In this document: piece after piece, positions 1,933 to 45,812 of the stretch
How positions within the stretch are numbered: position 1 is the first letter of the stretch
Layout: each line of letters opens with the position of its first letter
Source of the DNA: a virus
IMG/VR virus record: IMGVR_UViG_3300027806_000001
Coordinates: 64,001 to 128,000 of that record
Length of the DNA: 64,000 nucleotides
Direction: 5' to 3' (one strand)
Program-made: the position numbers and the translations under genes
The notes under the pieces: model-generated
Databases searched by the model: none
Told to the model about the DNA's origin: nothing
Seen by the model: the letters and a program-made list of their open reading frames with translations, nothing else

Positions 1933-2250
1933 TCAGCTTCCTCCTTGGCCGTTGCCGTAGTCGTCGCCGGTGCCGTAGCCTGTGCCCCTGCCGTCGCCAT
2001 AACCCCTGCCGTTGCCCATGCCGTAGCCCTTGCCCCCACCGCAGCCGTTGCCGTTGCTGCCGCCGTTGCCCATGCCGCCGCCCCAGCCCATGCCGCTGCC
2101 GCTATCACAGCTGCCGCCCCAGCCGTAACCTCTGCCGGTGCCTTCGCCGCCGCCAATGCCATTGCCGCTGCCGTAGCCGCTGCCATCGCCGTCGCCGTAG
2201 CCGCTGCCGTTACCCCTATGGATGTCCCTCGTTTTGTCCTTGTAGCTCAT
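1933..2250 (-). CDS. (Gly-X)n micro-protein, cluster A
   Basis: 105 aa, alternating Gly; ends GNGQGGS with RBS for next gene. Confidence 0.65.
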   Translation of the reverse strand: MSYKDKTRDIHRGNGSGYGDGDGSGYGSGNGIGGGEGTGRGYGWGGSCDSGSGMGWGGGMGNGGSNGNGCGGGKGYGMGNGRGYGDGRGTGYGTGDDYGNGQGGS

Positions 2251-2637
2251 TCAATTTCCTCCTTGGCCGTTGCCGTAGCCCGCGCAGGTGCCGTAGCCTG
2301 TGCCCTTGCCCTTGCCGTCGCCTCTGCCGTGGCCGCCGCCGCAGCCGTCGCCGGAGCCGCTGCCGCCGCCGCAGCCGCCGCCGCTGCCATCCCAGCCGCT
2401 GCCCCAGCCGTAACCTCTGCCGGTGCCATCGCCGCGACCAATGCCGTACTTTAAGTTGCCTACACCGTAGCCCCTGCCGTCGCCGTAGCCGCTGTCCTGA
2501 TTGCTGCCCCAGCCTCCTCCTTTGCCGTTGCCGTCTCCGCGACCGGTGCCATTGCCGCAGCTGCCCCGGCCCTCACCTGTGCCGTTGCCGAATCCGGCGC
2601 CGCTGCCACAGCCGTAGCCACTGCCTTTGTCGCTCAT
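2251..2637 (-). CDS. (Gly-X)n micro-protein, cluster A
   Basis: Start MSDKGSG at 2637 overlaps upstream TGA (ATGA); ends GNGQGGN. Confidence 0.65.
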   Translation of the reverse strand: MSDKGSGYGCGSGAGFGNGTGEGRGSCGNGTGRGDGNGKGGGWGSNQDSGYGDGRGYGVGNLKYGIGRGDGTGRGYGWGSGWDGSGGGCGGGSGSGDGCGGGHGRGDGKGKGTGYGTCAGYGNGQGGN

Positions 2638-2984
2638 TGCATCCTGCCTTTCTTGGCCGTTGCGCAGGCCCGGCACGCCGGTCGGCGCAGTCCCAGCCCC
2701 GCTCCTTCGTACCCGCACTCCGCGCAGACCTTCCTGGACCGTTCGGCGTACGCCCGCAGCAGTCCGGAGACGTCCTCGGGCCGGAACCTGCCGGCCAGGG
2801 CCATCGCCAGGCCGTCGCTGGAGGCGAACACCTGGGTGACCTGGAAATTCTTGCCCAGGATGCCCTTGGTCCGCATCTCGTCCAGCTCGTGCAGCAGGCC
2901 GGACACCAGCGTCGTCCAGCCGGGCGGCACGCGGTACACGGTGTCCCTGTTGATCTCGTAGTCGGGATATCCTCCTCGGGTCAT
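2634..2984 (-). CDS. Hypothetical phage protein with C-terminal Zn ribbon
   Basis: GW..LV..L..EL ... RSRKVCAECG ... CRAC. Confidence 0.55.
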   Translation of the reverse strand: MTRGGYPDYEINRDTVYRVPPGWTTLVSGLLHELDEMRTKGILGKNFQVTQVFASSDGLAMALAGRFRPEDVSGLLRAYAERSRKVCAECGYEGAGLGLRRPACRACATAKKGRMQ

Positions 2985-3168
2985 CGCACCTCCACGCCGA
3001 CGGCGAGCCGCTTGCGCAGCACGAAGTGCTTGATCTCGAGCAGGGTGCGCCGGCTCACCCCTGGGTGCGGATCGGTGTGGCTGAGGACCAGCAGGAGCAT
3101 GTCCTTGTGGTCCTCGAGCTCTCGCTCCAGGGCGGACACCTCGGCCAGGGCCTGCTCGAGCAGCCCTC

Positions 3169-3675
3169 TCAGTATGGCCGCGTCCCCGCGGGGTTGTCCA
3201 GGAGCTGCTCGACGCTCGTCAGGACCGTCTCCATCGCCGTCAGCCAGCCGTGTCCCTCCAGTATCCACCCCGCCCTGTTGAAGAGGGAGGTGCGGCACTC
3301 CGTCCCAAGCCTGCGGATCACCGGCCTGCACCGGTGCTTCAGGTCCGCCTGCGCCGAGTGCTGGCTGATCATGGACAGCCTGTCCAGGGCGGCCAAGGCC
3401 GCGGTCCTCGTCTCCGGCGTGACGCGGGGGGAGGCATGCAGCTTCTCCGCCCGCTCCCTCAGGTCCCGGATCCTGCACGTCGTCCAGTCCATCCTGGTCC
3501 TGGCGACCTTTCTCAGCCCCCGCAACAGCTGCGTCGCCTCCCATACGTCCTCCGGGATGGTCACATGCTCCGTCTGCGTCCCCCGCTCTGGCGACCAGTC
3601 GGTCACCGCCATCGTCGTAAACTCCGGGTCCATGCATGGTTCCTGCCTTTTTCGTTCAAGGTTCAAAGCCTTCAT
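3169..3675 (-). CDS. Hypothetical protein
   Basis: Distal part of long ORF from ATG 3675, which overlaps upstream stop (TGATG). Confidence 0.4.
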   Translation of the reverse strand: MKALNLERKRQEPCMDPEFTTMAVTDWSPERGTQTEHVTIPEDVWEATQLLRGLRKVARTRMDWTTCRIRDLRERAEKLHASPRVTPETRTAALAALDRLSMISQHSAQADLKHRCRPVIRRLGTECRTSLFNRAGWILEGHGWLTAMETVLTSVEQLLDNPAGTRPY

Positions 3676-4298
3676 CACTCCTCCAGGCCCTCGATGATGC
3701 GGTCCAGGAGGGACTCCTTCGAGTAGCCCGAGCGGTTCCTGCCCCAGCGGCGCCGGACGTGGTAGCTGTCCGGAGGGGCCGTCATCCTCTGCCCCATGCG
3801 CTGCGGCGGCAGGAACGTCCTCAGGGCGAAGCCGAGGCCCAGCCTTCGCATGAAGATGCCTGCCGGCACCAGCAGCTCGGGCTGGCCTCCCCGGCCGCGC
3901 CGCGGCGTCAGCCAGTGCGCAGGCAGCAGGGACGCCCAGAGCTCCTCCTCGTTCATCGTGGCCAGGTCCCTGCGGCGCAGGTCCCTCGCGTCCAGCCGGC
4001 ACGCCTCGCACACCGGCGGATCCTCGAACACCAGGTTCCAGCGGCCGCACCTGGCGTTCACCAGCTGCGGTTTGGCAGGAGGGCGCACGGTGGCCGTGCA
4101 GCGGCGCCAGCCCGGCACGGGGTGCAGCTCCCCGGCCGTGGCGAAGAAGCACGGCTCCCGAAGCCTGCGCCCGTCGCGCCGGCAGTCGGCCAGCGCCCTG
4201 ACGTAGGCGTGCAGCGGATCGGGGTCGGCGCAGAACTCTTCCTTCAGCAGCCGGTCGAACGAGCAGACGCGGTTCTCGATCATCTTCATCCAGCTCAT
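3675..4298 (-). CDS. Hypothetical protein
   Basis: 207-aa ORF with RBS (aggaagcaaggc) and coupled stop. Confidence 0.5.
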   Translation of the reverse strand: MSWMKMIENRVCSFDRLLKEEFCADPDPLHAYVRALADCRRDGRRLREPCFFATAGELHPVPGWRRCTATVRPPAKPQLVNARCGRWNLVFEDPPVCEACRLDARDLRRRDLATMNEEELWASLLPAHWLTPRRGRGGQPELLVPAGIFMRRLGLGFALRTFLPPQRMGQRMTAPPDSYHVRRRWGRNRSGYSKESLLDRIIEGLEE

Positions 4299-5405: not shown

Positions 5406-5472
5406 GTGTTTTTCTCGAACAACGGCCCGTCGATCGCTCCGCTCTGCCGCTCCTGGACCCGGGCAGGTCCGT

Positions 5473-6069: not shown

Positions 6070-6109
6070 GCATACTCCCTTCTCGACGGCGGCCGGGAGG
6101 CCGTCGTGT

Positions 6110-6138
6110 ATTCTCACACGAGGCAGGACGCTGTTTAC
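6110..6138 (-). promoter_or_regulatory. TAAAY-N17 promoter (variant GTAAAC ... GAGAAT)
   Basis: Minus strand GTAAAC-17 nt-GAGAAT with CGTGT before the -10. Confidence 0.6.
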
Positions 6139-7838: not shown

Positions 7839-8039
7839 CTAGTTCCCGTCGTCGACGGGACAGTCCAGATATTGGTCCAGCGCGTCCTTGATCTGGAGGT
7901 ACAGCGTGTCGCTCCGGGAGCCGACCGGAGGATCGTCCGGCACCAGCCCCTCGAGGACGAGCACGTTGTAAAGCGCGTTCGTCATGCGGTTCCTAATGGC
8001 GATGCGCTCGCGGTTGTTCAGCTTGATCAGATCCTTCAT
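7839..8039 (-). CDS. Hypothetical protein
   Basis: 66 aa, coupled to upstream Gly-rich ORF. Confidence 0.5.
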   Translation of the reverse strand: MKDLIKLNNRERIAIRNRMTNALYNVLVLEGLVPDDPPVGSRSDTLYLQIKDALDQYLDCPVDDGN

Positions 8040-8287
8040 CCCCTCCCCCTGCCGTCGCCGCTGCCCGTGCCGCCGCCAGTGCCGCAGCCGTAACCGCCGC
8101 CGCAGCCGTCGCCCTTGCCGCCCGCCGTCACGCCGCCGGCGTTGCCGCCGCCCATGCCTCTGCCGTTGCCGTTGCCGCTGCCCTCGCCGCTGCCGTAGCC
8201 GCCGCCGGCGTTGCCGTAGCCGTAGCCCATGCCGTAGCCGTCTCCTCTTCCGCTGGCCGTTCCGCTGCCAGGTTGAATGCCGCTCAT
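8036..8287 (-). CDS. (Gly-X)n micro-protein, cluster B
   Basis: Start MSGIQPGSG at 8287 overlaps upstream TGA. Confidence 0.65.
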   Translation of the reverse strand: MSGIQPGSGTASGRGDGYGMGYGYGNAGGGYGSGEGSGNGNGRGMGGGNAGGVTAGGKGDGCGGGYGCGTGGGTGSGDGRGRG

Positions 8288-8508
8288 GCAGTCACCTCCT
8301 TGGGCTCTTCCTCGTCCTTGTAGATCTCGACCCTGTACTCCGTGCCCGTCTTCGTGACCTTGGTCGCGACGTCGTTCAGCCAGTCCGCATCCTCCTGCGC
8401 CTTGGCCCTGGAGTCGTAGATGCAGGGCTTGCCGACGCCCTCGTTGAGCAGGCCGCGGTCGTCCTTGTCCTTCATCAGGCGGACGCACCATCTGCGCTTG
8501 GCCTTCAT
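8284..8508 (-). CDS. Hypothetical protein between Gly-rich ORFs
   Basis: 74 aa, coupled on both sides. Confidence 0.55.
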   Translation of the reverse strand: MKAKRRWCVRLMKDKDDRGLLNEGVGKPCIYDSRAKAQEDADWLNDVATKVTKTGTEYRVEIYKDEEEPKEVTA

Positions 8509-8873
8509 CAGTCCCCCCTTCCGGCGCCGTTGCCGAAGCCTTGGCCGCAGCTCATGCCCCAGCCCCTGCCACTGCCGTTGCCGTTGCCGCCACCATAGGC
8601 AGTGCCGCAGCCGTAGCCGCCGCCGCCAGAGCCGACGCTGCAGCCATAATCACCGCCGTGGCCGTTTGCGCTGCCGTGGCCGAAGCCGCCGCCCCTGCCG
8701 CTGCCTTTGCCATCGCCCCAGCCGCTGCCATCGCCATAGCCCCTGCCGTTGCCGCTGCCACAGCCACTGCCGTAGCCATAGCCGGTGCCATCGCCCCAGC
8801 CGCTGCCGTAGCCGTTGCCCCTGCCGTCTCCCATGCCGCTGGCTGTTCCGTTGCTCTGTCGGTTGTCGCTCAT
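8508..8873 (-). CDS. (Gly-X)n micro-protein, cluster B
   Basis: 121 aa, RBS aggaggac upstream. Confidence 0.7.
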   Translation of the reverse strand: MSDNRQSNGTASGMGDGRGNGYGSGWGDGTGYGYGSGCGSGNGRGYGDGSGWGDGKGSGRGGGFGHGSANGHGGDYGCSVGSGGGGYGCGTAYGGGNGNGSGRGWGMSCGQGFGNGAGRGD

Positions 8874-8971
8874 TTCAGTCCTCCTGCGCCCTGCAGGCTT
8901 TCACAGCTAAGCGCAATGGAAAGCAGGGGCCCGGGTGCAGGCCCGGGCCCCTGCCTCCTGGCGAGACGATG

Positions 8972-9439
8972 TCAGGCCGCTTCGCGAATGGTCTGCACGG
9001 CCTCGTCGGTGCACGGGATGCACTCGATCACGCCGTGGACGTAGATGTCCACCTCGGCGTCGATCTTGCTGTTCTTGGCATTGACGCCGTGCTTGGCGAC
9101 GCCCGACAGGGCGACGCCCTTCTTGCCCGCGGTGATCTCCCACGACCACAGCCGGCGGCCGTGAAGCAGGTAGTACTCGCCGCCCTGGCGGCCGACCATG
9201 AATCCGAAGTGCACGCCCGACTCACCGGAGCGCACGAGGACCCACCTGCCGGCGAACGGGTGCGGCTGCCAGGCGATGCTGGCGATCTCCGGGGCGATCT
9301 CCGGCTTCGAGGTCAGCGAAACGGCCGGGGCGCACTTGAGGCCCTTGACGGCCTTGGCGACCTCGCCGGGCACGACTTCCTTCACCACGTCGGTGATGGC
9401 GGGGCGGAGGGCGTCGACGATTGGATTGCTGCTGCTCAT
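8972..9439 (-). CDS. DUF6948-like phage protein
   Basis: WVLVRS..SGVHFG, RRLWSW, LSGVA..GV, EC.PCT.EA...I motifs; family name recalled from memory. Confidence 0.65.
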   Translation of the reverse strand: MSSSNPIVDALRPAITDVVKEVVPGEVAKAVKGLKCAPAVSLTSKPEIAPEIASIAWQPHPFAGRWVLVRSGESGVHFGFMVGRQGGEYYLLHGRRLWSWEITAGKKGVALSGVAKHGVNAKNSKIDAEVDIYVHGVIECIPCTDEAVQTIREAA

Positions 9440-9584: not shown

Positions 9585-9613
9585 ATTATCACACGCCTGT
9601 GCTGCTTGTTTAG
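9585..9613 (-). promoter_or_regulatory. CTAAAC-N17-GATAAT promoter
   Basis: Exact 17-nt spacer, extended -10 TG. Confidence 0.7.
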
Positions 9614-15819: not shown

Positions 15820-16148
15820 TGCTTCCTGCCTTTCTTCTTGGTCTGCTTGGCCGCATTCTCGCGGCGGTGGATCTCGCTCCATAGACGTGGGCCGCCCGTC
15901 CAGGTCCTGCCCTGGAGCTCGATGTACGCATCCTCGATCAGGGCGGCCAGCTTGGGCGCGTTGCCGGTGAAGGTCTTGGCGTAGAAGTAGCCGTCCCAGT
16001 CGTAAAGAGTCATGCTGGCCGCGGCAATCCTGCGCTCTAGATCCTTGATGCGTTTCTGCGCCTTGAGCAGCTCCGAGGTCGCACACCCGCACGTCGCAGG
16101 CTTGGCCTTGGAGGATCCCGTCTTACGACTCTTTGCCTGCTTGCTCAT
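15816..16148 (-). CDS. Hypothetical protein, KKGRK C-terminus
   Basis: Start MSKQAK uses the cluster C junction. Confidence 0.55.
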   Translation of the reverse strand: MSKQAKSRKTGSSKAKPATCGCATSELLKAQKRIKDLERRIAAASMTLYDWDGYFYAKTFTGNAPKLAALIEDAYIELQGRTWTGGPRLWSEIHRRENAAKQTKKKGRKQ

Positions 16149-16447
16149 CCTGCCCCCTTTCCGTTGCCATCGCCATAGCCGTAGCCGCTGACGTAGCCAA
16201 AGCCATAGCCACTGCCGTAGCCGCAGCCTCTGCCGCAGCCGTAGCCTGTGCCATCGCTGCTGCCAGATCCAGTGCCACGGCCGTTGCCCCAGCCGTAGCC
16301 ACTGCCGGTGCCGTGGCCACTGCCCCTGCCATCGCCGAACTCGCCGCCGCACTTGCCGAAGCCTACGCCTCTGCCGGAGCCATCGCCCTCGCCGCAGCCA
16401 CTGCCGCTGCCGTCGCCATTGCAGTACTCGATGTTCTGCGTGCTCAT
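16145..16447 (-). CDS. (Gly-X)n micro-protein, cluster C
   Basis: Leader MSTQNIEY; ends GNGKGAG. Confidence 0.7.
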   Translation of the reverse strand: MSTQNIEYCNGDGSGSGCGEGDGSGRGVGFGKCGGEFGDGRGSGHGTGSGYGWGNGRGTGSGSSDGTGYGCGRGCGYGSGYGFGYVSGYGYGDGNGKGAG

Positions 16448-16764
16448 CCTGTCCCCCTTCCGTTGCCATCGCCCTCGCCCCTGCCGTAGCCCCTGCCGTA
16501 GCCTGTGCCGTTGCCCATGCCGCGGCCATAGCCAAAGTCGCCGCCTGCGCCGCCTACTCCGCCACCCACTCCGCTGCCATCGCCCCTGCCGTTACCCCAG
16601 CCTCTGCCGCAGCCGTAGCCTGTGCCATCGCCGTCGCCCCTGCCTTCCGCCCTGCCGCAGCCTGTACCGAGGTATTCGCGGTTGCCATGGCCCCAGCCCC
16701 AGCCGCTGCCGAAGCCTTGGCCGGCAATTGCTCCGCAGCCGTACTCGATCCTCTGCTTGCTCAT
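16444..16764 (-). CDS. (Gly-X)n micro-protein, cluster C
   Basis: Leader MSKQRIEYG. Confidence 0.7.
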   Translation of the reverse strand: MSKQRIEYGCGAIAGQGFGSGWGWGHGNREYLGTGCGRAEGRGDGDGTGYGCGRGWGNGRGDGSGVGGGVGGAGGDFGYGRGMGNGTGYGRGYGRGEGDGNGRGTG

Positions 16765-17162
16765 CCTGCCCCCTTTCTGCGGCCATTGCCCCAGCCGCGG
16801 GCCGTGCCGCAACCGTGACCTCTGCCCATGCCGTCGCCGTAGCCGCTGCCCTGGCCGTCTCCAGCAAAGAAGTACGGGCCGCCGCCGGAGCCCTGACCAT
16901 TGGTGTAGCTGGGGCCGAAGAAGCTTGTAGTGCCGTAGCCTGTGCCGTCGCCGCAGCCCTTGCCGTCGCCGTCTCCATAGCCATCGCCGCGGCCATCGCC
17001 ACCAAAGACAAAGCCATGCGCCGAGCCGTGGCCGTAGCCTGTGCCGTCGCCGCAGCCCTTGCCGCTGCCGCTGCCCCAGCCTGCGCCCCAGCCGTCGCCG
17101 TCCGCGTCGCCGCGGCCTGTGCCGAGGCTATTGCAGTTGCCTAAGTTGCGTTTCTTGCTCAT
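16761..17162 (-). CDS. (Gly-X)n micro-protein, cluster C
   Basis: Leader MSKKRNLG. Confidence 0.7.
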   Translation of the reverse strand: MSKKRNLGNCNSLGTGRGDADGDGWGAGWGSGSGKGCGDGTGYGHGSAHGFVFGGDGRGDGYGDGDGKGCGDGTGYGTTSFFGPSYTNGQGSGGGPYFFAGDGQGSGYGDGMGRGHGCGTARGWGNGRRKGAG

Positions 17163-17497
17163 CCTGCCCCCTCCCCGTTGCCGGCGCCCAGGGTTGCACC
17201 CCCGCCATTGCCAGTGCCGTTGCCGTTGCCCCTGCCGTTGCCCTGGGCTAAGCCGCCGGTCCAGTTCCGGCCATCGCCGTAGCCATAGCCGCCGCCAGTG
17301 CCGTAGCCGCCGCAGTTGCCGCCGCCGTAGCCGCTGCCACTGCCGTCGCCGTCGCCGCCGTAGCCGGTGCCGCGGCCTTGGCCGCGGCCGCAGCCCTCGC
17401 CGCTGCCGCTGCCCCTGCCCCAGCCTGCGCCCCAGCCGCTGCCGTCGCCATGGCCGGAGGCCGTGCCCTTGCCGTACTCGATGTTCTGCGTGCTCAT
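17159..17497 (-). CDS. (Gly-X)n micro-protein, cluster C
   Basis: Leader MSTQNIEYG. Confidence 0.7.
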   Translation of the reverse strand: MSTQNIEYGKGTASGHGDGSGWGAGWGRGSGSGEGCGRGQGRGTGYGGDGDGSGSGYGGGNCGGYGTGGGYGYGDGRNWTGGLAQGNGRGNGNGTGNGGGATLGAGNGEGAG

Positions 17498-17856
17498 CCT
17501 GTTCCCTCCCCGTTGCCGGCGCCCAGGGTTTCACCATGGCCGCTGCCACTGCCCATGCCGTTGCCCTTGCCATCGCCCCTGCCGTCGCCGCCGCCGCAGC
17601 CGCTGCCACTGCCCATGCCGTTGCCCTTGCCATCGCCCCTGCCGTCGCCGCCGCCGCAGCCGTTGCCACGGCCTGAGCCGTCGCCACTGCCGTCGCCGAA
17701 CCCGGCGCTGCCGCCGCCGTAGTTGTTGCCATCTCCCCAGCACCGGCCGTAGCCTTGGCTATCGCCGCAGCCTGAGCCGCTGCCGTAGCCCCCGCCTCTG
17801 CCGCAACCGTGGCCGGAGGCCGTGCCGTAGCCGTACTCGATCCTCTGCTTGCTCAT
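17494..17856 (-). CDS. (Gly-X)n micro-protein, cluster C
   Basis: Leader MSKQRIEYG; internal 60-bp tandem duplication. Confidence 0.7.
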   Translation of the reverse strand: MSKQRIEYGYGTASGHGCGRGGGYGSGSGCGDSQGYGRCWGDGNNYGGGSAGFGDGSGDGSGRGNGCGGGDGRGDGKGNGMGSGSGCGGGDGRGDGKGNGMGSGSGHGETLGAGNGEGTG

Positions 17857-18281
17857 CCTGCCCCCTTTCCGTTGCCGTCGCCCATACCTCTCTGAAACCC
17901 GTGGCCATAGCCGCAGCCCCTGCCGTCGCCCTGGCCCCGGCCCCTGACCTGAGCCGACGGGCTACCGTAGGGAAACAGAAGCCCTCCGCAACCGTGACCT
18001 CTGCCCATGCCGTCGCCGTGACCTTGGCCGTAGTCCGGCTGACTGGACTTGACCGTCCTGACCAGAGGCCCGCAACCGTCGCCAGTTCCGTTGCCGTCGC
18101 CGTGGCCACTGCCCCAGGGGGAGTAGCCTTCGTCGCCGCCGTAGCCGTTGCCACAGCCGGCGGTCGACCTGCTCCTGCCGGTGCTCCAGCCCCGGCCTTT
18201 GCCATCGCCTTGGCCTGCGCCATCGCCAAAGCCGCTGCCGCGGCGTGCAAGCGCCTCGGCTGAAAATTCATCGTTGCTCAT
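17853..18281 (-). CDS. (Gly-X)n micro-protein, cluster C
   Basis: Leader MSNDEFSAEALARR. Confidence 0.65.
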   Translation of the reverse strand: MSNDEFSAEALARRGSGFGDGAGQGDGKGRGWSTGRSRSTAGCGNGYGGDEGYSPWGSGHGDGNGTGDGCGPLVRTVKSSQPDYGQGHGDGMGRGHGCGGLLFPYGSPSAQVRGRGQGDGRGCGYGHGFQRGMGDGNGKGAG

Positions 18282-18625
18282 TTCTTCCCCTTTCCGTTGC
18301 CTCGACCTTGGCCGTTGCCGCTGCCGCAACCATCACCAGAGCCGTTGCCGTTGCCGTCACCGTTAGCGGTTCCGCTGCCGAAACCGAAGCCGCGGCCGTC
18401 GCCCATGCCGCAACAGCAACCACGGCCCATGCCATCGCCGCTGCCGCTGCAATAGCCGGAGCCGCTGCCGTTGCCGCTGCCGATGCCACTGCCGTTGCCA
18501 TAGCCCCAGCCGCTGCCAGTGCCGTTGCCGTAGCCCTCACCTGTGCCGTTGCCGAACCCGGCGCCGCTGCCACTGCCGTAGCCCCTGCCGCTGCCGTCGC
18601 CATAATCGATCCTCTGCGTGCTCAT
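18278..18625 (-). CDS. (Gly-X)n micro-protein, cluster C
   Basis: Leader MSTQRIDYG. Confidence 0.7.
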   Translation of the reverse strand: MSTQRIDYGDGSGRGYGSGSGAGFGNGTGEGYGNGTGSGWGYGNGSGIGSGNGSGSGYCSGSGDGMGRGCCCGMGDGRGFGFGSGTANGDGNGNGSGDGCGSGNGQGRGNGKGKK

Positions 18626-18692
18626 CCTGCCCCCTTTCCGTTGCCGTCGCTGCCACCCTGCGCCGAGCCGTGGCCCATGCCGTTGCCTTGAG

Positions 18693-18827
18693 TCATTCGA
18701 AGTCCTCCGTCTCGTGGGGCTCCAGGATCGGGCACCCTGCGCCGACCCAGGAGTCCATGCATTTGTGGCACCACGGCCACGACTCGTTCTCGTCGTATTC
18801 CCGCTTGCAGTTATCGCACTCGGCCAT
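18693..18827 (-). CDS. 44-aa Zn-ribbon-like micro-protein
   Basis: MAECDNCKR...WCHKC...; RBS aaagggg; below ORF-track cutoff. Confidence 0.5.
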   Translation of the reverse strand: MAECDNCKREYDENESWPWCHKCMDSWVGAGCPILEPHETEDFE

Positions 18828-18889: not shown

Positions 18890-18918
18890 ATTCTCACACG
18901 CGCGCCCCCGCTGTTTAG
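18890..18918 (-). promoter_or_regulatory. CTAAAC-N17-GAGAAT promoter followed by a 17-bp hairpin (18846-18888)
   Basis: 17-nt spacer; -35 includes helicase stop codon. Confidence 0.7.
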
Positions 18919-24747: not shown

Positions 24748-24748
24748 G

Positions 24749-24822
24749 CGTCCGCACCAGGACTTGAACCTGGAACCGCCTCGTTAGGACCGAGATGCGC
24801 TATCCAATTGCGCCATGCGGAC
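24749..24822 (-). tRNA. trnR: tRNA-Arg(CCT), CCA not encoded
   Basis: GTCCGCA/TGCGGAC acceptor, GCGC D stem, TCTCG-GTCCTAA-CGAGG anticodon arm, CCAGG-TTCAAGT-CCTGG T arm. Confidence 0.92.
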
Positions 24823-30700: not shown

Positions 30701-33700
30701 GTCGGAATAGAGGAACCACTTGTCCAGCTTGGCCAGATGCGTCGAGATGACCCTGAGGCCGTAGGCATCCGCCCAATTCGGATTAGTGGAACTGAGCTGC
30801 CTGTCGGAAAGAACCGTGGAGAACACCCCGAGGCCGGACAGAAGATCGATGAGAGCGTCACGCATGGCGCGGGAAGTGGTCCATGCTTCCAATTGAACCG
30901 CGCCATTCGAGTCCTCGTGCAGGCATCCGTCGCCTGCGAAATAGCCTGCGACAAGGCCATGCCTGAACGCTTCGGAGCGGTCGAAGGCTCTTTCGGACGG
31001 ACACTTGTGAGCGCTGCCGTGGCCAAATTCAGCCACCAGCCACGACGCCACTTCGGAGGAGGTAAAGCTGACCTTGCCGGCGTCCGCCTTGTTGTCGTGA
31101 GGCTTCAAGCCCAGTTGAACAATCAGTTGCTCGAGTTCAGCCCTGCGAGAAGCATCCTTCACCGCGAGGATGACCATGTTCGGCTGCGAAGGCGGAACAT
31201 GGCCCTCGGCCAGGTAGATGCCGGCCAGAAGACCCCATTCGTGGGAATCGCGTTTATCGACGGAGTCCTTCGGATTGTCCATTGCGCATACCGGCAGTCG
31301 AGTCGTGCCGACCACGCACTCGTCCGGGTACAGGGGCACCAGCTTTCCGTCCTCTCCCATGGTGACCAGGGAGTGGTCCTCGGTGACGACCACGGTCCTG
31401 CCACCGCGGGTGCGCACCTGGACCATCCTGCGGTCGTTGGTCAGCTCGACGAAGGCCGTCACGGGCTCCCACGAGGACCTGCAGGTCTCCGGATCGATCG
31501 AGCGGATGAGGTCTCCTGCCGCGAAGGCGTACTGGTCCGCGCGCACGTGCATCCTGCGGTCACCCCGCAGAATCCACACCTTGGTGGACCCCTTGACGCA
31601 CTTCCTGTTGAACGGGAAGTTGTTGTAGGTCTCGTACCTGCGCTTCGTCTTGCCGTGCTTCACCTCGACGAAGTCCGGGTCGACCGCGGTGACGACGCCG
31701 GGGCCCAGCTCCTTCTCCGCCGTCACGGCCGCCAGGGCCGACTGCAGCTGCTCCTCGTAGGCGCGGCCCTCGGGATCCTCGGAGTCGAGGCCCTGCACCA
31801 GGGGCGACTCGGCGTCCCGCACCGGCAGGGCCTGGGTGAAGTACTTGCTGCCCATCAGCAGGCGGCCGCCCTTGATGCCCGACACGCCGGGCACGAGGTT
31901 CGAGTTCACGTTGAACATCGCGTTGTGCGACGGCAGCTCGAACTGCACCGCCTTGGGGTCGACGTAGGAGATCTCGCCGCCGACCATGGCGCGGACCATG
32001 TCGCCGGTCTTGGCGGCCTTGGCCAGTTCGCCCGGGAAGGCCACGATGGAGTCGGTCACCTGGCGCGCGGGCACGGGCTTGACCTCGCCGGTCCTCGGGT
32101 CGCGCAACCTGGAGTAGAGCTGGCCGTCGGTGCCCTTGATGGCGCCCACGGTGAGGCGGAGGTCGACGCCGACGCTGGAGCTCTCGGGCGTTCGAACGGG
32201 ATCGATGAACCCGAAGTGCGACGGCTGCACCGACCGGCTGTCGATGGGAATGCCGTGGGCGCCCGAGGAGATGCCGCCCTCGCCGGTGCGGATGACGCGC
32301 ATGTTCTGGTCGAGGATCTCCATGGGGTTCACCTCCTCGATCGGAGCGCCAAGGCCGGAGCCCATGAGCACGCCGTTGAGGGCCGGGGTGAACACGCCGT
32401 TCTTCAGCGGCTCGAGGTTGCCGCGGTTGGTCGCCTTGAACAGGGCCGTCCGCAGGATGCCGCCGGCGTCCTTCTCGATGCGCTCCGAGAAGAAGTCCTC
32501 CGGGCCGAGGAACTTCTGGTAGGCCAGGCTGTCGCGGTCGTCCTGGTCCTCGAGGCCCTTCTGAGCGTTGAGGATCTTCTGGCTGGCCCTCAGCAGGGTG
32601 CGGCCCGAGATCTTGCCGAAGTCGTCGTCCGTGAGATCGACCGGGGTCATCGGCCCGATCTCCACCGGGGCGGCCTCCTTGGTCTCCATCAGGGTGTTGA
32701 GGTCGGCCGCGGCCTTGACCCCGACCGACAGGCGGAATCCGCCGCGCGGCTTGGGGTCGAGCAGCAGGCTGCGACGGAGCTGCTCCAGCTCGGGGCACTC
32801 GATCTCGACGCAGTACTCGCCGCTCATCGGCGGCAGCACCTTGACCAGGTCGTAGGTGAAGCGGCGGCCGGAGCCGCAGGTCGCCTCGAAGTCCTTGCGG
32901 AAGACCTTGCGCAGCTTCTTGATCTCGTCCGCCTCGATGACGGTCAGCCTGCCGTCGCCCTTGGCGATGCCGGGAGCCTTGTCCGAGTCCCTGAGGGCGT
33001 AGTACACGCCGTCGATCAGGCCGGATGGAACCGTGATGTAGCCCTCGGAGTCGATGCGCAGGGTGCCGCGGATGGGCACGGAGGCGGCCTTGGCGCGGTA
33101 GCCCAGCGTGCGCCGCGTCACCTCGGGGTCGAGCACCGTGGACTCGAGGGCGGTGCGGATGCCGGAGTAGATCGTGTTCTCGTCGAGGTCCTTGGACGGC
33201 TCGTTGGTCAGGCGCTCGTAGATGCGCCCTGCGTCGTAGGCCGAGCCTTCCTTGCTGGACGCCAGCAGGTCCTTGCCCCACGTCTTTTCAAGTTCATCAT
33301 CGGTGACGCCCAGGGCGCGGAACATGGGGTAGGCCGGGGCGACGGACTGGCCGATCTCCACGACGAACTTGCCGGTGTCCGGCATGAGGGCCATGCGGAA
33401 GCCGCGGCCCTTGCCCGGCAGGGTGTTGAAGTGAGCCTCGTACTCGCCCGACTTCCTGCGGCGGACGAACGGGCCCGGCAGGAGGCGGGACTGGTTGGTC
33501 ACCACGTACTCGCTGCCGTTGGAGATGAAGGTGCCGCGCGGGGTGAGGTACGGCACGCGGGCCAGGGTGACCGGCTTGTCGGTCTGATCGATGACCGCCC
33601 CGGTGGCGTTGTCCTTCATGACCAGGTGCCCGCGCAGCGGGGTGTACAGGCTCTGGCCCTGCATGAGGGCCTTCTGCTGGTCCTTCAGGGTGTACTCGGG

Positions 33701-40591: not shown

Positions 40592-40600
40592 GCCTCCGAC

Positions 40601-40648
40601 AGCTAAAAGAAAGACCCTCGGTTTTGGCCGGGGGTCTTTCTTTTAGCT
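40601..40648. terminator. Bidirectional intrinsic terminator
   Basis: AGCTAAAAGAAAGACC...GGTCTTTCTTTTAGCT inverted repeat between convergent genes. Confidence 0.85.
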
Positions 40649-40671: not shown

Positions 40672-40959
40672 TCATTCGGAGACTCCTTTGCCGTCGCCGC
40701 GGCCGCTGCCACCGCCCATGCCGCTGCCGCAGACGCTGCCGTAGCCCCAGCCTCTGCCATTGCCGTCGCCGCGGCCGCTGCCACCGCCCATGCCGCTGCC
40801 GCAGACGCTGCCGTAGCCCCAGCCTGTGCCGCTGCCATCGCCGCCGCCGCTGCCGCCGCTGCTGTGGTCCCAGCCTCTGCCGTCGCCGTTGCCTCTGCCG
40901 TTGCCGCCGCCCTTGCCCCTGCCATCGCCATCACCGTGGCCATTACCTGGGTTGCTCAT
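40672..40959 (-). CDS. (Gly-X)n micro-protein, cluster D
   Basis: Leader MSNPGNG; internal 60-bp duplication. Confidence 0.7.
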   Translation of the reverse strand: MSNPGNGHGDGDGRGKGGGNGRGNGDGRGWDHSSGGSGGGDGSGTGWGYGSVCGSGMGGGSGRGDGNGRGWGYGSVCGSGMGGGSGRGDGKGVSE

Positions 40960-41240
40960 GATGAACCTCCTTCGCCGTTGCCACTGCCGTTGCCATCGCC
41001 GCTGCCGGCGCCGTCGCCGTAGCCCCTGCCGTTGCCGTAACCTTTGCCGTTGCCCCGGCCTTCGCCATCGCCGCCGCCGTTGCCGCTGCCCCAGCCTGTG
41101 CCGTGGCCGCAGCCTGTGCCGCGGCCTATGCCGTAGCCCATGCCGCTGCCCTCGCCGTCACCCGAGCCGCTGCTCCAGCCCTTGCCGTCCCCCATGCCGT
41201 TGCCCTCGCCCTCGCCATGGCCATTACCTGGGTTGCTCAT
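40956..41240 (-). CDS. (Gly-X)n micro-protein, cluster D
   Basis: Leader MSNPGNG. Confidence 0.7.
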   Translation of the reverse strand: MSNPGNGHGEGEGNGMGDGKGWSSGSGDGEGSGMGYGIGRGTGCGHGTGWGSGNGGGDGEGRGNGKGYGNGRGYGDGAGSGDGNGSGNGEGGSS

Positions 41241-41586
41241 TCGAAACCTCCTTCGGCATCCTCGAGTAGATCGGCTCGCGCAGCCTGAGGATGTAGTGGT
41301 CGCCCTCGCTCTGAGGCCCGACCTCCACGTCTATCATGGCCGCCTGCACCAGGTCGCACATCAGGGGGTGCACGTCCCTGAGGCGCAGCCTGAACATACC
41401 GGCCACGTCGCGCAGCTGGACGCCCGCCGGCCCCGCGGCCGACACCAGGGCCATCACGGCCTTCCTGCGGTCCGCCGAGCGCAGCAGCCGCCGGCCGGGG
41501 CCTGCCGCCTTGCGCCGGACCCTGTGCCGCTCGGCAAGCTGCTCGGCAAGCATGCGGAGCCTCGTGTCGATCGCCGGACCGCTCAT
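41224..41586 (-). CDS. Winged-helix DNA-binding protein (putative)
   Basis: V..LV...G..GVQLRDVAGMF.L...DVHPLM..LV.A.MI then beta wing. Confidence 0.5.
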   Translation of the reverse strand: MSGPAIDTRLRMLAEQLAERHRVRRKAAGPGRRLLRSADRRKAVMALVSAAGPAGVQLRDVAGMFRLRLRDVHPLMCDLVQAAMIDVEVGPQSEGDHYILRLREPIYSRMPKEVSNEQPR

Positions 41587-42319: not shown

Positions 42320-42648
42320 TCGGAACCTCCTTTGCCGTTGCCCCATCCGTAGCCGGTGCCCCATCCGTAGCCGGTGCCCCAGCCGCTGCCATCGCCGCTG
42401 CCGTTACCCCAGCCGGTGCCGTAGCCATAGCCGGTGCCATCGCCCCAGCCGATGCCATGGCCGTAGCCGTCGCCGCTGCCGTCGCCGTTGCCCCAGCCGT
42501 TGCCGCTGCCCGTGCCGCCGCCGTCGTTTTGGCCAAAACCGCCGCCGAAGCCCCTGCCGTCGCCATCGCCCCTGCCGCTGCCGTAGCCGCTGCCGCAGCC
42601 ATGGCCGCGGCCGCTGCCCTCACCCTGGCCGTTACCTGGGTTGCTCAT
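42316..42648 (-). CDS. (Gly-X)n micro-protein, cluster D
   Basis: Leader MSNPGNG; ends GNGKGGSE. Confidence 0.7.
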   Translation of the reverse strand: MSNPGNGQGEGSGRGHGCGSGYGSGRGDGDGRGFGGGFGQNDGGGTGSGNGWGNGDGSGDGYGHGIGWGDGTGYGYGTGWGNGSGDGSGWGTGYGWGTGYGWGNGKGGSE

Positions 42649-42959
42649 TCGGAGCCTCCCTTGCCGTTGCCCATGCCGCCGCCAGTGCCGCAGCCGTAGC
42701 CGCCGCCGTCTCCTCTTCCGCCGCATTTGCCAAAGCCATGGCCGGTGCCGTCACCGAAGCCCTTACCTCTGCCGAAGCCCTTACCGTTGCCCCAGCCGCT
42801 GCCTTTGCCATCGCCCCAGCCGTAGCCGTCAGCGCTGCCCATGCCGCGGCCGCCGCCGTAGCCGCTGCAATAGCCGGAGCCGCTGCCGTCGTTTTGGCCA
42901 AAACCGCCGCCGAAGCCCCTGCCGCTGCCGTTGCCATTGCCACTACCTGGGTCGCTCAT
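42645..42959 (-). CDS. (Gly-X)n micro-protein, cluster D
   Basis: Leader MSDPGSG; ends GNGKGGSE. Confidence 0.7.
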   Translation of the reverse strand: MSDPGSGNGNGSGRGFGGGFGQNDGSGSGYCSGYGGGRGMGSADGYGWGDGKGSGWGNGKGFGRGKGFGDGTGHGFGKCGGRGDGGGYGCGTGGGMGNGKGGSE

Positions 42960-43261
42960 TCGGAGCCTCCTTTGCCGTTGCCACTGCCGTCGCCGATGCC
43001 GTAGCCCTCGCCGAAGCCCTTGCCATTGCAGTAGCCCCAGCCGAAGCCCCAGCCACTGCCATCGCCGTAGCCTCTGCCGAAGCCATCGCCGCCGCCGCTG
43101 CCGCGGCCGTTGCCGAGGCCCTCGCCGTTGCCGCTGCCGCCGCCCATGCCTCTGCCGTTGCCGTTGCCGCTGCCCTCGCCGCTGCCGCTGCCCATGCCTC
43201 CGCCCCTGCCGTTGCCGTCGCCATCACCCTGGCCGCTACCTTGTAAGTAGTTACCCATCAT
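42956..43261 (-). CDS. (Gly-X)n micro-protein, cluster D
   Basis: Leader MMGNYLQG; ends GNGKGGSE. Confidence 0.7.
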   Translation of the reverse strand: MMGNYLQGSGQGDGDGNGRGGGMGSGSGEGSGNGNGRGMGGGSGNGEGLGNGRGSGGGDGFGRGYGDGSGWGFGWGYCNGKGFGEGYGIGDGSGNGKGGSE

Positions 43262-43463
43262 GCCTCCTCATGTGCCGAGCGTTGAGGAAGAGCAGGGCCA
43301 GCACCCAGATAACCGAGGCCAGACAGGCGGCCACCCACACGACGGTGACCCATCCGGGACTGTTGGCGCCGTCAGCCTTGAGGACCAGGTTGGTCAGGAG
43401 CCCACTCCCTGTGAGAACAAGGCACGACCGCGCCCAAATGTATTCGTACTTTCTGGTTTTCAT
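43251..43463 (-). CDS. Small two-TM membrane protein
   Basis: Start MKTRKY; two hydrophobic segments. Confidence 0.5.
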   Translation of the reverse strand: MKTRKYEYIWARSCLVLTGSGLLTNLVLKADGANSPGWVTVVWVAACLASVIWVLALLFLNARHMRRHDG

Positions 43464-44170
43464 GGCTTCTCCTTCACTTTCTCCAGCAGCTGCTGGTACC
43501 TGGCATGCGCCGAGGCAAGGCACGAGTGGTGCTCCGCGCTCAGGAGATGCGACAACTTCGCGTCGAAGCCGCACCTGTACCGGGCGGTTGTCTTGATACG
43601 CTGCGGGTCGCTCCCGTCGCGTGGCGCAGCTCGGACTGCCGACATGGATTCGATCAAGGATCCGCTGACGATCGTCGGCTGGGGTCCGGAGATGGTCATA
43701 CGGAACCCCGTCACCCAGCCGTTCCTGGACCAGACCTCTTCCGTCAGCTCCTCGGGCTTGGCCTCTTCCTCGCCTTCCAGGATCTTCCACCGGTCATGCC
43801 TGGGCTTCAGCAGCCACCAGGTGCTGCCCCAGAGGTAGCAGACCGTGCGCTCCTCCGTGCCTCCGAACGGCAGCTGCAAGGACGTCAGCCGCAGCTGCGG
43901 ATTGACAGACACCGACCACTCCTTCCTGTCGAAGACGATCGCCTGGTCCCCGATGTACCTGAGGGTCAACGTCTTGAAGACTAGCTTGCTGAAGGTGTCG
44001 TGGCAGGTGCCGACGACATCTCCGACCTTGAGCCCCCACTTGCGGGCATGCTCGGCGTCCGACCCGCGGTTGCCTGGCCTTTCGGTGGAAGCAGTTTCGG
44101 GAGCCGCCAGACGGACCGACTCGTAGCCCAGGTTGTGGAAAACCTTCTCAGCGCATTCTTCCGACCTCAT
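43460..44170 (-). CDS. Hypothetical protein (WGLKVGD paralog)
   Basis: ARKWGLKVGDVV shared with 45796-46518. Confidence 0.6.
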   Translation of the reverse strand: MRSEECAEKVFHNLGYESVRLAAPETASTERPGNRGSDAEHARKWGLKVGDVVGTCHDTFSKLVFKTLTLRYIGDQAIVFDRKEWSVSVNPQLRLTSLQLPFGGTEERTVCYLWGSTWWLLKPRHDRWKILEGEEEAKPEELTEEVWSRNGWVTGFRMTISGPQPTIVSGSLIESMSAVRAAPRDGSDPQRIKTTARYRCGFDAKLSHLLSAEHHSCLASAHARYQQLLEKVKEKP

Positions 44171-44571
44171 TGTGCCTCCTGTCCGGCCGTCACGCCGTAG
44201 GTAAAGGTGCTGACCTTCATGTTTTTATTCTCGTCGATCTCGACGCTCCTGACGATCCTGCCCTCGGAATCGAACCGCTCCTCCTTGGAGGACAGCTCGA
44301 CGGCGTCCCTGCCCCACTCAGGGTCGCTGCGAATCAGCACGGCCTTCCTGCAGACCAGCCTTTCATCGCGGTCGTAGACCTCCGTGGTGGTCCACCTGCA
44401 ATGCAGCCCTGGACCCGGGGTCTTGCAGACCACTTCGCAACCGCCCAGGACATTCCAGGTCTCAGTTCGGTTCGCGCCCATGACCAGCCGGACATGCCCG
44501 TTGGGGTAGAGGACGATGCTCTCGCCCGGACGGTACTTGCAGTGCATTGTCCTGATCGCGTTATTGCTCAT
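44167..44571 (-). CDS. Hypothetical beta-rich protein
   Basis: Short beta-hairpin-like repeats. Confidence 0.55.
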   Translation of the reverse strand: MSNNAIRTMHCKYRPGESIVLYPNGHVRLVMGANRTETWNVLGGCEVVCKTPGPGLHCRWTTTEVYDRDERLVCRKAVLIRSDPEWGRDAVELSSKEERFDSEGRIVRSVEIDENKNMKVSTFTYGVTAGQEAQ

Positions 44572-44885
44572 TTGTCCTCCTTGGTTTGCTGTTTCTTAAA
44601 CAGGTGGTTCCAGCCTCTTTCGGCGGCGACACCTTCGGGCGTGTTCACTTCGTGTCCGGTTTCGTACCGCCGCATTGCATCGTCGTAGCAAATATCCTCC
44701 TGAGCCTCGTCGCGCTGCTCGATCGCGGCGGCAAGTTCGGCGCGGAGGTGTTCTACCTCGCGCATTCCCTGCCGCAGCATGTCGCCCTCACGGCTGTTGG
44801 GCCATGCGTAGGTTCCATCCGTCTGCGCATATGCGTGGTGCAGATTCAGGAGGAAAATCGACCCTGTCTGCTTGCCGTTGCTCAT
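44568..44885 (-). CDS. Hypothetical, RDEA...GW.(Y/H)L paralog
   Basis: EQRDEAQEDIC...RGWNHLF...TKEDK. Confidence 0.6.
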   Translation of the reverse strand: MSNGKQTGSIFLLNLHHAYAQTDGTYAWPNSREGDMLRQGMREVEHLRAELAAAIEQRDEAQEDICYDDAMRRYETGHEVNTPEGVAAERGWNHLFKKQQTKEDK

Positions 44886-45190
44886 TCGGAACCTCCCTGG
44901 CCGTTGCCAAAGCCGAAGCGATAGCCATGGCCATAGCCATGGCCAACGCCATTGCCATGGTCGCCACCATAGGCGAGGCCGTAGCCGCAGCCATGGCCGC
45001 TGCCCCAGCCCCTGCCGTTTCCGCTGCCGCGACCAATGCCGTGACCAAAACCGTTGCCCTTGCCCTCGCCGTAACCCTCGGCATTGCCGCCGCCGTAGCC
45101 GCGGCGCCTGCCATCGCCGCTGCCTTGCGCAGTGCCGCCGCCGTAGCCGCTGCCGTCGCCGAAACCGGGGTCATTACTCGGGTTGCTCAT
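44882..45190 (-). CDS. (Gly-X)n micro-protein, cluster E
   Basis: Leader MSNPSND; ends GNGQGGSE. Confidence 0.7.
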   Translation of the reverse strand: MSNPSNDPGFGDGSGYGGGTAQGSGDGRRRGYGGGNAEGYGEGKGNGFGHGIGRGSGNGRGWGSGHGCGYGLAYGGDHGNGVGHGYGHGYRFGFGNGQGGSE

Positions 45191-45498
45191 TAGGAACCTC
45201 CTTTGCCATTGCCCATGCCATTGCCCATGCCGCTGCCATAGCTGCTGCCGCTGCCATCGCCGTTGCCCTCGCCGTATCCATCGCCACTGCTACGGCCACG
45301 GCCGTGGCCGTAGCCCCCGCCGTTGCCGCAGCCGTTGCCTTCACCTTCGCCGTGGCCTCGGCCGTAGCCGCCTCCGCTGACATTACCATGGCCACTACCC
45401 CTGCCATCTCCAAAGCCGCCGCCGTTGCCCCTGCCCATGCCGTTGCCCCTGCCGTCACCACCACCATCGCCCCTACCTGGGTTGCCCGGGTTGCTCAT
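45190..45498 (-). CDS. (Gly-X)n micro-protein, cluster E
   Basis: Leader MSNPGNPG. Confidence 0.7.
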   Translation of the reverse strand: MSNPGNPGRGDGGGDGRGNGMGRGNGGGFGDGRGSGHGNVSGGGYGRGHGEGEGNGCGNGGGYGHGRGRSSGDGYGEGNGDGSGSSYGSGMGNGMGNGKGGS

Positions 45499-45812
45499 TC
45501 GGAACCTCCTTTGCCGTTGCCGTAGCCATTACCCCGGCCATCGCCGTAGCCCCTGCCATCGCCGTGGCCTACGCCTATGCCTGCACCGTAGCCCTGACCG
45601 TAACCGCTGCCATTGCCGCTGCCACTGCCCCAGCCACCGCCATCGCAGCCCCTGACGATGCCATCGCCGCAGCCACTGCCGTTGCCATTGCCCTGGCCAT
45701 CGCCCCGGCCGTAGCCCCTGCCACCGCCCCAGCCGCCACCTGAGCCGCCTGCGCTGCCCTCGCCACAGCCTCGACCGTTGCCATTACCTTGGCCATTACC
45801 TGGGTTGCTCAT
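45495..45812 (-). CDS. (Gly-X)n micro-protein, cluster E
   Basis: Leader MSNPGNG; ends GNGKGGSE. Confidence 0.7.
   Translation of the reverse strand: MSNPGNGQGNGNGRGCGEGSAGGSGGGWGGGRGYGRGDGQGNGNGSGCGDGIVRGCDGGGWGSGSGNGSGYGQGYGAGIGVGHGDGRGYGDGRGNGYGNGKGGSE

Follow-up and report, generated by a model that had tools for sequence, protein, structure and literature searches.

The 64,000-nucleotide stretch of viral DNA analyzed here (the window; bases 64,001 to 128,000 of virus record IMGVR_UViG_3300027806_000001) carries 21 apparent genes for small proteins in which glycine stands at about every second position (Gly-X proteins). Judged from gene content and order, these genes arose by amplification, divergence, and dispersal of the second gene in a widespread two-gene phage cassette, the first gene of which encodes a protein of the DUF6948 family (PF22253); the canonical copy in the window consists of the DUF6948 gene and the Gly-X gene B2. 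The window is the most amplified and chemically most diverse instance of the cassette seen, and it provides the clearest evidence for selection on a glycine lattice and for rapid turnover of the arrays. The original prediction, made from the window alone, described the genes as an expanded, diversifying peptide library; the family has a constant genomic partner in DUF6948, so that the arrays are better read as amplified copies from a cassette than as a free-standing library.

The whole virus record is 183,468 bp long, with 66% GC and direct terminal repeats. The phage encodes a multisubunit RNA polymerase (RNAP). Among cultured phages it is closest to Salmonella phage Arash and to the Vibrio phages D69 and D181, with ~31% amino acid identity.

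Organization and composition of the Gly-X arrays

When the window and the complete genome were scanned in all six frames, exactly 21 Gly-rich open reading frames (ORFs) were found on the minus strand, all within the window. They form the five clusters as originally placed (A, 2; B, 2; C, 7; D, 7; E, 3). A 24-amino-acid (aa) mini ORF heading array C is a 22nd member. The Gly-X genes, the DUF6948 gene, and the one non-Gly-X gene inside array D are as follows.

1933 to 2250, minus strand: A1, Gly-X gene, 105 aa; start codon directly adjoins the stop of A2; Shine-Dalgarno sequence (SD) AAGGAGG
2251 to 2637, minus strand: A2, Gly-X gene, 128 aa; ATGA overlap with the upstream gene at 2634 to 2984
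8036 to 8287, minus strand: B1, Gly-X gene, 83 aa; SD AAGGAGG; ATGA overlap with the 74-aa gene at 8284 to 8508
8508 to 8873, minus strand: B2, Gly-X gene, 121 aa; canonical partner position, 98 nt downstream of DUF6948
8972 to 9439, minus strand: DUF6948 (PF22253) gene, 155 aa, with a 60-aa N-terminal extension (Pfam match and structural model)
16145 to 16447, minus strand: C1, Gly-X gene, 100 aa; ATGA overlap
16444 to 16764, minus strand: C2, Gly-X gene, 106 aa; ATGA overlap
16761 to 17162, minus strand: C3, Gly-X gene, 133 aa; a 188-nt block is 82% identical to D3
17159 to 17497, minus strand: C4, Gly-X gene, 112 aa; ATGA overlap
17494 to 17856, minus strand: C5, Gly-X gene, 120 aa; ATGA overlap
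17853 to 18281, minus strand: C6, Gly-X gene, 142 aa; most degenerate copy (34% Gly)
18278 to 18625, minus strand: C7, Gly-X gene, 115 aa; ATGA overlap with the mini ORF
18622 to 18696, minus strand: mini Gly-X ORF, 24 aa, with the canonical GNGKGAG tail (read from the sequence)
40672 to 40959, minus strand: D1, Gly-X gene, 95 aa
40956 to 41240, minus strand: D2, Gly-X gene, 94 aa; 17-nt overlap with the gene at 41224 to 41586
41224 to 41586, minus strand: non-Gly-X gene inside array D, 120 aa; counterpart in the close relative G001 87% identical in amino acids
41583 to 41999, minus strand: D3, Gly-X gene, 138 aa
41996 to 42319, minus strand: D4, Gly-X gene, 107 aa
42316 to 42648, minus strand: D5, Gly-X gene, 110 aa (used for structure prediction)
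42645 to 42959, minus strand: D6, Gly-X gene, 104 aa
42956 to 43261, minus strand: D7, Gly-X gene, 101 aa
44882 to 45190, minus strand: E1, Gly-X gene, 102 aa; orthologue in G001 88% identical
45190 to 45498, minus strand: E2, Gly-X gene, 102 aa; TAA stop, TAATG junction
45495 to 45812, minus strand: E3, Gly-X gene, 105 aa; 17-nt overlap with the gene at 45796 to 46518

Start mapping gives proteins of 83 to 142 aa, matching the lengths first claimed. All 21 ORFs begin with ATG, and all 21 have a purine-rich SD (AAGGAGG, AAAGGGGG, and similar) 5 to 10 nt 5′ of the start. The chaining by overlaps that had been described is seen as an ATGA overlap at 15 of the 21 starts and a 1-nt TAATG overlap at E1; A1 abuts its neighbor (TGA followed directly by ATG), B2 has a free-standing start, and D7, D2, and E3 overlap non-Gly-X genes by 11 or 17 nt. 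Array D is split by the gene at 41224 to 41586 and array B by the 74-aa gene. Together the 21 genes comprise 2,323 codons (~7 kb), or 3.8% of the genome.

Glycine makes up 34 to 51% of each protein. The probability of Gly at position i+2 given Gly at position i is 0.83, and at odd lags it is 0.12 to 0.15. Short heads of 6 to 9 residues are conserved (MSNPGNG and MS[TK]Q[NR]IEYG). The X positions are occupied mainly by S (15%), D (12%), N (12%), R (10%), and Y (10%), followed by T (5%), W (5%), K (4%), H (4%), and C (4%) and then by E, F, and M, while L, I, and V together account for only 2.3% of residues. GYG, GFG, GWG, and GRG triplets are abundant, with 90 G-R-G triplets in the set. Charge is balanced and near neutral, at −5 to +2 per protein and −0.6 per 100 aa. 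In other phages, X is Y (33%), S (24%), D (23%), and N (12%), with a net charge of −10.5 per 100 aa, although that comparison set was chosen for Y/S/D/N, so that the contrast in charge and composition is partly built in. The usual acidic Y/S/D/N makeup is not found in the window, and we treat it as a typical rather than a defining feature.

Codon usage for arginine also differs between the two groups of genes in this phage: AGG and AGA account for 61% of Arg codons in the Gly-X genes versus 30% in the other phage genes. The only tRNA in the window is a tRNA-Arg(CCT) (24748 to 24822).

The Gly frame appears to be translated and selected

No internal stop occurs in the Gly frame in 2,323 codons, whereas the other two sense frames contain 32 and 49 stops and the three antisense frames contain 10, 120, and 9. 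The paralogues are old and only ~70% identical in DNA, with blocks common to different clusters, the best of which (B2 and D4) is 90% identical over 157 nt. When random substitution was simulated at ~30% divergence (300 runs), a mean of 2.4 of the 21 genes stayed open and the maximum was 7. The G+C content at third codon positions (GC3) is highest in the Gly frame, at 0.785 compared with 0.634 and 0.703 in the other frames. Elsewhere, the Gly codon that spells out this protein pattern is GGC, GGT, or GGG, depending on the phage lineage (34 to 67% GC); the amino acid, not the DNA word, is therefore the constant. Given their architecture, frame, divergence, GC3, and lineage-specific codons, the 21 ORFs are apparently real protein genes. 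The selection for translation that the original prediction had proposed is supported by the stop-free Gly frame, by the simulation, and by the repeated SD-ATG-stop architecture.

These observations bear directly on whether the repeats could be neutral DNA derived by slippage, open by chance and without function. Such repeats expand and contract easily, and codon adaptation in the arrays is weak, as neutral DNA would predict. However, at ~30% divergence about 2 open frames would be expected and all 21 are found, the SD sequences and ATGA junctions are conserved, the Gly lattice is kept between orthologues, and conservation of the cassette extends over thousands of DUF6948 clusters (see below). 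We regard a neutral origin without function as barely credible.

In many other phages, each Gly-X gene uses a nearly single Gly codon (L023, L026, L035, L054, L102, and others; L022 and L111; L055 and L118). GGC is chosen even in genomes of 36 to 42% GC in which X is encoded by TAT or GAT, and GGT or GGG is used in other lineages. This could reflect either homogenization by slippage or a translational preference.

The near-monotone Gly codon, including the use of GGC in AT-rich genomes, would also suit a function at the nucleic acid level, in which the GGC-NNC hexamers form G-rich structured RNA or DNA and the ORFs are incidental. Variants of this idea include two-tier quadruplexes, protein sponges, and recombination hot spots, and the strict 6-nt periodicity and the largely open neighboring sense and antisense frames are compatible with each. 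We consider it very improbable, as different lineages write the same protein pattern with GGC, GGT, or GGG, an SD, an ATG, and a stop accompany each unit in a common register, and the complete lack of stops is confined to the Gly frame. Furthermore, changes between orthologues avoid positions 1 and 2 of the Gly codons, and phase shifts of 3 nt, half a unit, are tolerated.

Arrays turn over between near-identical phages

Querying with the RNAP yielded seven related viral contigs. One of these, G001, is a close relative represented by a 17.5-kb fragment (RNAP 97% identical) that is colinear with window positions 32179 to 53994. Another, G002, is a complete 174.6-kb genome of a more distant relative (RNAP 80% identical, 49% GC). 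Protein-seeded scans with the helicase, a 162-aa neighbor, and the DUF6948 protein of this phage produced no further close relatives, the 162-aa neighbor returning G001 again and nothing else, and two junction-specific DNA patterns had no match in viral contigs or metagenomes.

The flanks of the arrays in G001 are 92 to 96% identical in DNA to those of the window phage. Where the window has D7 to D3 and a small hydrophobic ORF, G001 retains just one mini Gly-X gene of 34 aa, whose head and tail are canonical; D2 and D1 are replaced by a single gene of 104 aa plus a 25-aa remnant; and its array E has two genes rather than three. The copy numbers here and in G001 are thus 7 versus 1 and 3 versus 2 genes, and the complete G002 genome has neither a Gly-X ORF nor a DUF6948 gene. 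On this comparison, the arrays turn over between near-identical phages. The ~70% DNA identity, the blocks shared across clusters, and these differences in copy number, which the original prediction had named as a check, all agree with its description of an expanded and diversifying family. Frameshifts or stops in relatives had been named as a sign of neutral DNA, and all Gly-X ORFs of the G001 arrays are open.

The E1 orthologues offer a view of selection within a gene. Since the repeats cannot be aligned without bias, the ratio of nonsynonymous to synonymous substitution rates (dN/dS) was abandoned for paralogues, and this orthologous pair alone was used. Both proteins are 102 aa long and are 88% identical, with 13 nonsynonymous changes in the genes. 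The proteins differ at 12 residues, every one of them an X position, and the ~44 Gly codons of the lattice are untouched; by a rough calculation, the probability that 13 nonsynonymous changes would miss the lattice codons, which hold 38% of nonsynonymous sites, is ~0.002. The location of all changes off the lattice indicates that Gly is under purifying selection and that X is free or diversifying.

G002 also reveals a large compositional shift inside one phage lineage, with 49% GC compared with 66% in the window phage.

DUF6948 is the constant genomic partner of Gly-X genes

The gene at 8972 to 9439 matches DUF6948 in Pfam with an E value of 8.3e-22 (77.6 bits versus a cutoff of 27), and the genome contains no second copy. 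It heads cluster B, in which B2 starts 98 nt after its stop on the same strand. B2 has the features of the partner type: a short head, period-2 Gly, and no other domain.

Gly-X ORFs had been said to occur in other phages, and a scan with the pattern (GGNNNN)15GG alone detected at least 119 viral loci. A DUF6948-like gene abuts 21 of 40 loci with polar, diversified Gly-X proteins compared with 2 of 75 loci with simple (GV/GA/GL)n repeats, and several of the 19 polar loci without DUF6948 merely lack upstream sequence. In the 21 loci, which were selected by their Gly-X ORFs, the order is DUF6948 and then Gly-X. Among the 201 non-Gly-X genes of this phage, DUF6948 alone recurs in Gly-X loci (12 hits). 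In the reciprocal direction, a profile search gave at least 3,727 DUF6948 clusters at 50% identity; nine representatives were sampled, seven of these gave DNA, and a Gly-X ORF follows immediately in all seven. The genomic link between DUF6948 and Gly-X genes, which held both ways and on independent samples, is very strong.

Four of the seven metagenome contigs (L159, L160, L161, and L163) end 30 to 50 nt past the DUF6948 stop, in the first Gly-X codons. Since the repeats break short-read assemblies, the cassette is likely undercounted and its arrays collapsed in public data.

The cassette is also present in cultured phages, Iodobacter phage PhiPLPE among them. Ralstonia phage NK-7 encodes XCO36016 (DUF6948) followed by XCO36015, which is annotated as a “fibroin heavy chain-like protein,” and Pectobacterium phage Koroua encodes CDS0033 (DUF6948) followed by CDS0032 (Gly-X). 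In the phage records examined, DUF6948 is labeled “hypothetical protein” and its partner either “hypothetical protein” or, on the basis of composition, “fibroin heavy chain-like protein”; the matching Pfam and PHROG families are labeled as of unknown function, and a literature search found no paper on DUF6948 or the cassette.

Several fusions were observed. Some DUF6948 proteins have two domains in tandem, and some have fused disordered tails that are acidic and rich in Gly, Ser, Asp, and Cys (P0001 and P0002; P0137 and P0079). In some phages, the Gly-X segment behind DUF6948 is fused to a C-terminal globular domain (L026, L054, and L064; L111 and L118) of one of two unrelated types, of ~150 and ~100 aa, and neither type (as in L064 and L118) has a match in Pfam, in PHROG functions, or among PDB sequences. 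Gly-X segments can therefore be the N-terminal arm of another protein.

Structure predictions and family searches

The AlphaFold2 (AF2) model of DUF6948 (mean predicted local distance difference test score [pLDDT], 85.8) has an N-terminal helix and a strongly bent five-stranded barrel. The top seven Foldseek matches are all Sm/LSm proteins, with a few chains of the NatC complex lower in the list (probability ~1; E values of 5e-3 to 2e-2; template modeling score by target, 0.5 to 0.66). All 50 of 50 rows obtained with VIA-align are Sm/LSm proteins (Z scores of 6.4 to 7.9; root mean square deviation of 2 to 3 Å over 62 to 74 residues), although sequence identity to Sm proteins is only 3 to 17%. 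Conserved DUF6948 positions are G75, G79, the ARRLW-W motif, G118, and A147. The model thus points to an Sm-like barrel, with a match that is consistent but middling. The tandem two-domain proteins bear on the idea of a ring but are only suggestive.

For the Gly-X proteins, the original prediction had mentioned a beta-solenoid as one possible form. The AF2 model of D5, built from an alignment of the 21 paralogues, has a pLDDT of 27.3 and no secondary structure, which does not favor a beta-solenoid, although AlphaFold cannot judge amyloid or gels. This model suggests that the Gly-X proteins are disordered, and its low confidence is compatible with a structure that depends on assembly. Searches of Pfam and PHROGs found nothing above threshold for these proteins, with only a subthreshold match to the low-complexity Pfam entry TrAA12; a word search of 5.8 billion proteins returned 452 candidates, none of them scoring; and tblastn against phages gave no match. 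The blank searches are due to composition filters and not to absence, given that the pattern scan found the viral loci reported above.

A model for the cassette and its alternatives

Our preferred reading, to which we give slightly less than an even chance, is that these are real genes for disordered polyampholytes, amplified from the cassette, whose products act as tails in trans of the Sm-like DUF6948 protein. The genes would be read as translationally coupled polycistrons and expressed early by the host polymerase from sigma-70-like extended −10 promoters (see below). The Gly-X chains would then serve as separately encoded low-complexity tails for an Sm-like oligomer, in a role like that of the (Gly-Arg)n/RGG tails of SmD1, SmD3, and LSm4 and of the disordered C-terminal domain of Hfq. 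They may modulate the binding of nucleic acids or, with GYG, GFG, GWG, and GRG as stickers, form a multivalent assembly that is ribonucleoprotein or condensate-like in nature, and the many diverged copies might supply different valence and charge. We infer translation, binding to DUF6948, the involvement of RNA, timing, and phenotype.

A more elaborate version of this idea, which we consider clearly unlikely, is a split-tail bacterial counterpart of the eukaryotic Sm core and its low-complexity tail. Here, Gly-X proteins as sticker-and-spacer polymers, a DUF6948 ring, and probably RNA would form an early membraneless compartment or RNA-handling granule, and the 21 versions would tune client selectivity or escape host countermeasures.

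Several results weigh against tails in trans. Only cluster B adjoins DUF6948, and 19 copies lie 6 to 36 kb away; these may act without it. The composition is unlike that of the usual acidic partner, and function may have shifted accordingly. The scores for the Sm-like match are middling (E, ~5e-3; Z, <8) and may reflect a common arrangement of structural elements. Codon adaptation is weaker than in the other phage genes (GC3 of 0.785 versus 0.912), and Ser is encoded by AGC in 72% of cases versus 26%, a bias expected of codons that originate by point change from GGC/NNC units. Weak adaptation is expected for repeats with fast turnover, but equally for weakly selected genes. Finally, overall dN/dS for the single orthologous pair (E1) is 0.79.

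Some of the same observations would fit Gly-X proteins that act independently of DUF6948, either as a self-assembling gel or amyloid (possibly a reversible kinked cross-beta gel) or as an abundant disordered sink or decoy for a host factor such as a protease, chaperone, or defense sensor, with an arms race driving their diversity. As noted, 19 of the 21 copies do not adjoin DUF6948, and some Gly-X loci have no DUF6948 by profile, such as L022, which has four tandem copies. X changes freely while Gly is fixed, copy number differs between phages despite nearly identical flanks, and the composition is rich in aromatic and Arg triplets flanked by Gly. However, the link with DUF6948 is very strong in both directions, and both genes are jointly absent from G002. 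The predictions contain no ordered, assembly-prone fold (with the limit of AlphaFold for amyloid and gels given above), and no result implicates defense or a target protein. Independent action is therefore a reading that we take seriously but hold to be unlikely.

The original prediction had also raised the possibility of substrates for modification. As ribosomally synthesized and posttranslationally modified peptide (RiPP) precursors of the microcin-B17 kind, cross-linked or glycosylated, the proteins would have their short conserved heads as leader peptides and hypervariable cores containing Gly, Ser, Cys, and Thr. The complete genome has no Radical_SAM (PF04055) or YcaO (PF02624) gene, in a search that was limited to these enzyme classes and that detected its positive controls, and no enzyme-like gene recurs beside Gly-X ORFs, where DUF6948 alone does so. 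In addition, products of 83 to 142 aa are long for such peptides, heads of just 6 to 9 residues are short, and no export or immunity genes were seen. A RiPP pathway is thus improbable.

Comparison with known systems

The cassettes of NK-7 and Koroua resemble that of the window in having DUF6948 followed by a same-strand, short-headed, strictly alternating Gly-X ORF. They differ in that each has one acidic Gly-(Y/S/D) gene, whereas the window has 21 (plus the mini ORF) near-neutral copies at five places, and in that X in the window also includes R, K, W, H, C, F, M, and T. The 21 copies at five places, the near-neutral and diverse X residues, and the fast change in copy number are the new elements here. 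The window shows what single-copy cassettes cannot: selection on the lattice with X left free, genes leaving the Sm-like partner and multiplying, and the turnover of arrays. If the products are trans-acting tails or condensate formers, the cassette would be a common and simple prokaryotic-virus model for the biology of low-complexity domains; if they are decoys, they would represent a new class of phage counterdefense. The cassette can be tested now in the cultured Ralstonia and Pectobacterium phages.

Several eukaryotic Sm and LSm proteins (SmD1, SmD3, SmB, and LSm4) carry dipeptide-repeat or RGG tails, that of SmD1 being (Gly-Arg)n. These proteins share with the cassette the combination of an Sm-type barrel and a Gly-X low-complexity segment, but the proposed tail in the window is a separate, amplified, and chemically diverse polypeptide. 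Hfq has a disordered C-terminal domain that modulates RNA binding, with an acidic tip in Escherichia coli and Gly-rich GGFGGQ repeats in Acinetobacter. An Sm-like core with a disordered acidic or Gly-rich extension is likewise found in those DUF6948 proteins that have fused tails. In the window, however, the putative tail is separately encoded, no Hfq motifs were found, and Hfq is not among the top structural matches listed.

Aromatic-rich kinked segments, low-complexity domains of the FUS/hnRNPA type, keratin-associated Gly/Tyr proteins, and plant glycine-rich proteins resemble the window proteins in combining Gly with Tyr, Phe, Trp, Ser, Asn, and Arg and in the disorder that is predicted for the latter. 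In the Atlas, one look-alike cluster carries KRTAP on 16% of its members. None of these systems has strict period-2 Gly over 25 to 80 residues, none is homologous, and none is a phage protein. Silk fibroin, (GAGAGS)n, has alternating Gly and has lent its name to the NK-7 partner in GenBank, but X in the window is bulky and polar or charged instead of Ala or Ser, the prediction contains no beta-sheet, and the short products presumably stay in the cytoplasm. RTX beta-rolls (GGxGxDxUx) and collagen or polyglycine-II (Gly-X-Y) are Gly-rich repeats as well, but with a period of 9 or 3. Periodicity of either type was rejected for the arrays, which have a period of 2 and contain no RTX nonapeptide in 2,323 residues.

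Promoter-like motifs and array neighbors

The sequence (G)CTAAACA-N15-GTGTGAnAATA, which resembles a sigma-70 promoter with an extended −10 element, occurs at only four sites in the whole 183-kb genome. All four are on the minus strand, and base composition would lead one to expect about 0.04 sites (an estimate). The sites (50730 to 50757, 18890 to 18917, 9585 to 9612, and 6108 to 6137; sequence motif) each have a GC-rich hairpin after them. Every one of the five Gly-X clusters has such a site upstream, and each site is upstream of a gene run that contains Gly-X genes, which suggests an early promoter class driven by the host polymerase. The sites that precede cluster B and array C and the other minor features are listed here.

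8923 to 8954, minus strand: GC-rich hairpin of 13 bp with TTT after it, in the gap from DUF6948 to B2; possible attenuator (read from the sequence)
9585 to 9612, minus strand: promoter-like TAAACA-N16-GATAAT with a TGTG extension, upstream of DUF6948 and cluster B
18693 to 18827, minus strand: CxxC...CxxC ORF, 44 aa, first gene of the array C operon
18890 to 18917, minus strand: promoter-like TAAACA-N15-GTGTGAGAAT at the head of array C, with a 5′ hairpin of 16 bp after it
40600 to 40645 (approximate), minus strand: hairpin and T run like an intrinsic terminator, right after D1 (read from the sequence)
43251 to 43463, minus strand: 70-aa ORF with two hydrophobic stretches, absent from G001 (read from the sequence); ATGA coupling with the gene at 43460 to 44170 and 11-nt overlap with D7

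Small proteins with zinc-ribbon-like CxxC...CxxC motifs recur beside the arrays. One lies directly before array C (18693 to 18827), and the motifs also flank array A, before it in the C terminus of the protein encoded at 2634 to 2984 and after it at 1732 to 1932.

No significant family match was found for the array neighbors (the 236- and 240-aa paralogues described here and the 120-, 134-, and 116-aa genes). The 236-aa (43460 to 44170) and 240-aa (45796 to 46518) proteins encoded upstream of arrays D and E are weak paralogues (25% identity; E, 2e-5) that have a WGLKVGD motif in common. The 240-aa gene overlaps E3, and the 70-aa ORF separates the 236-aa gene from D7. The pair suggests a duplicated module. 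Both proteins are evolving fast relative to G001, with 78% amino acid identity and dN/dS of 0.8 to 0.95.

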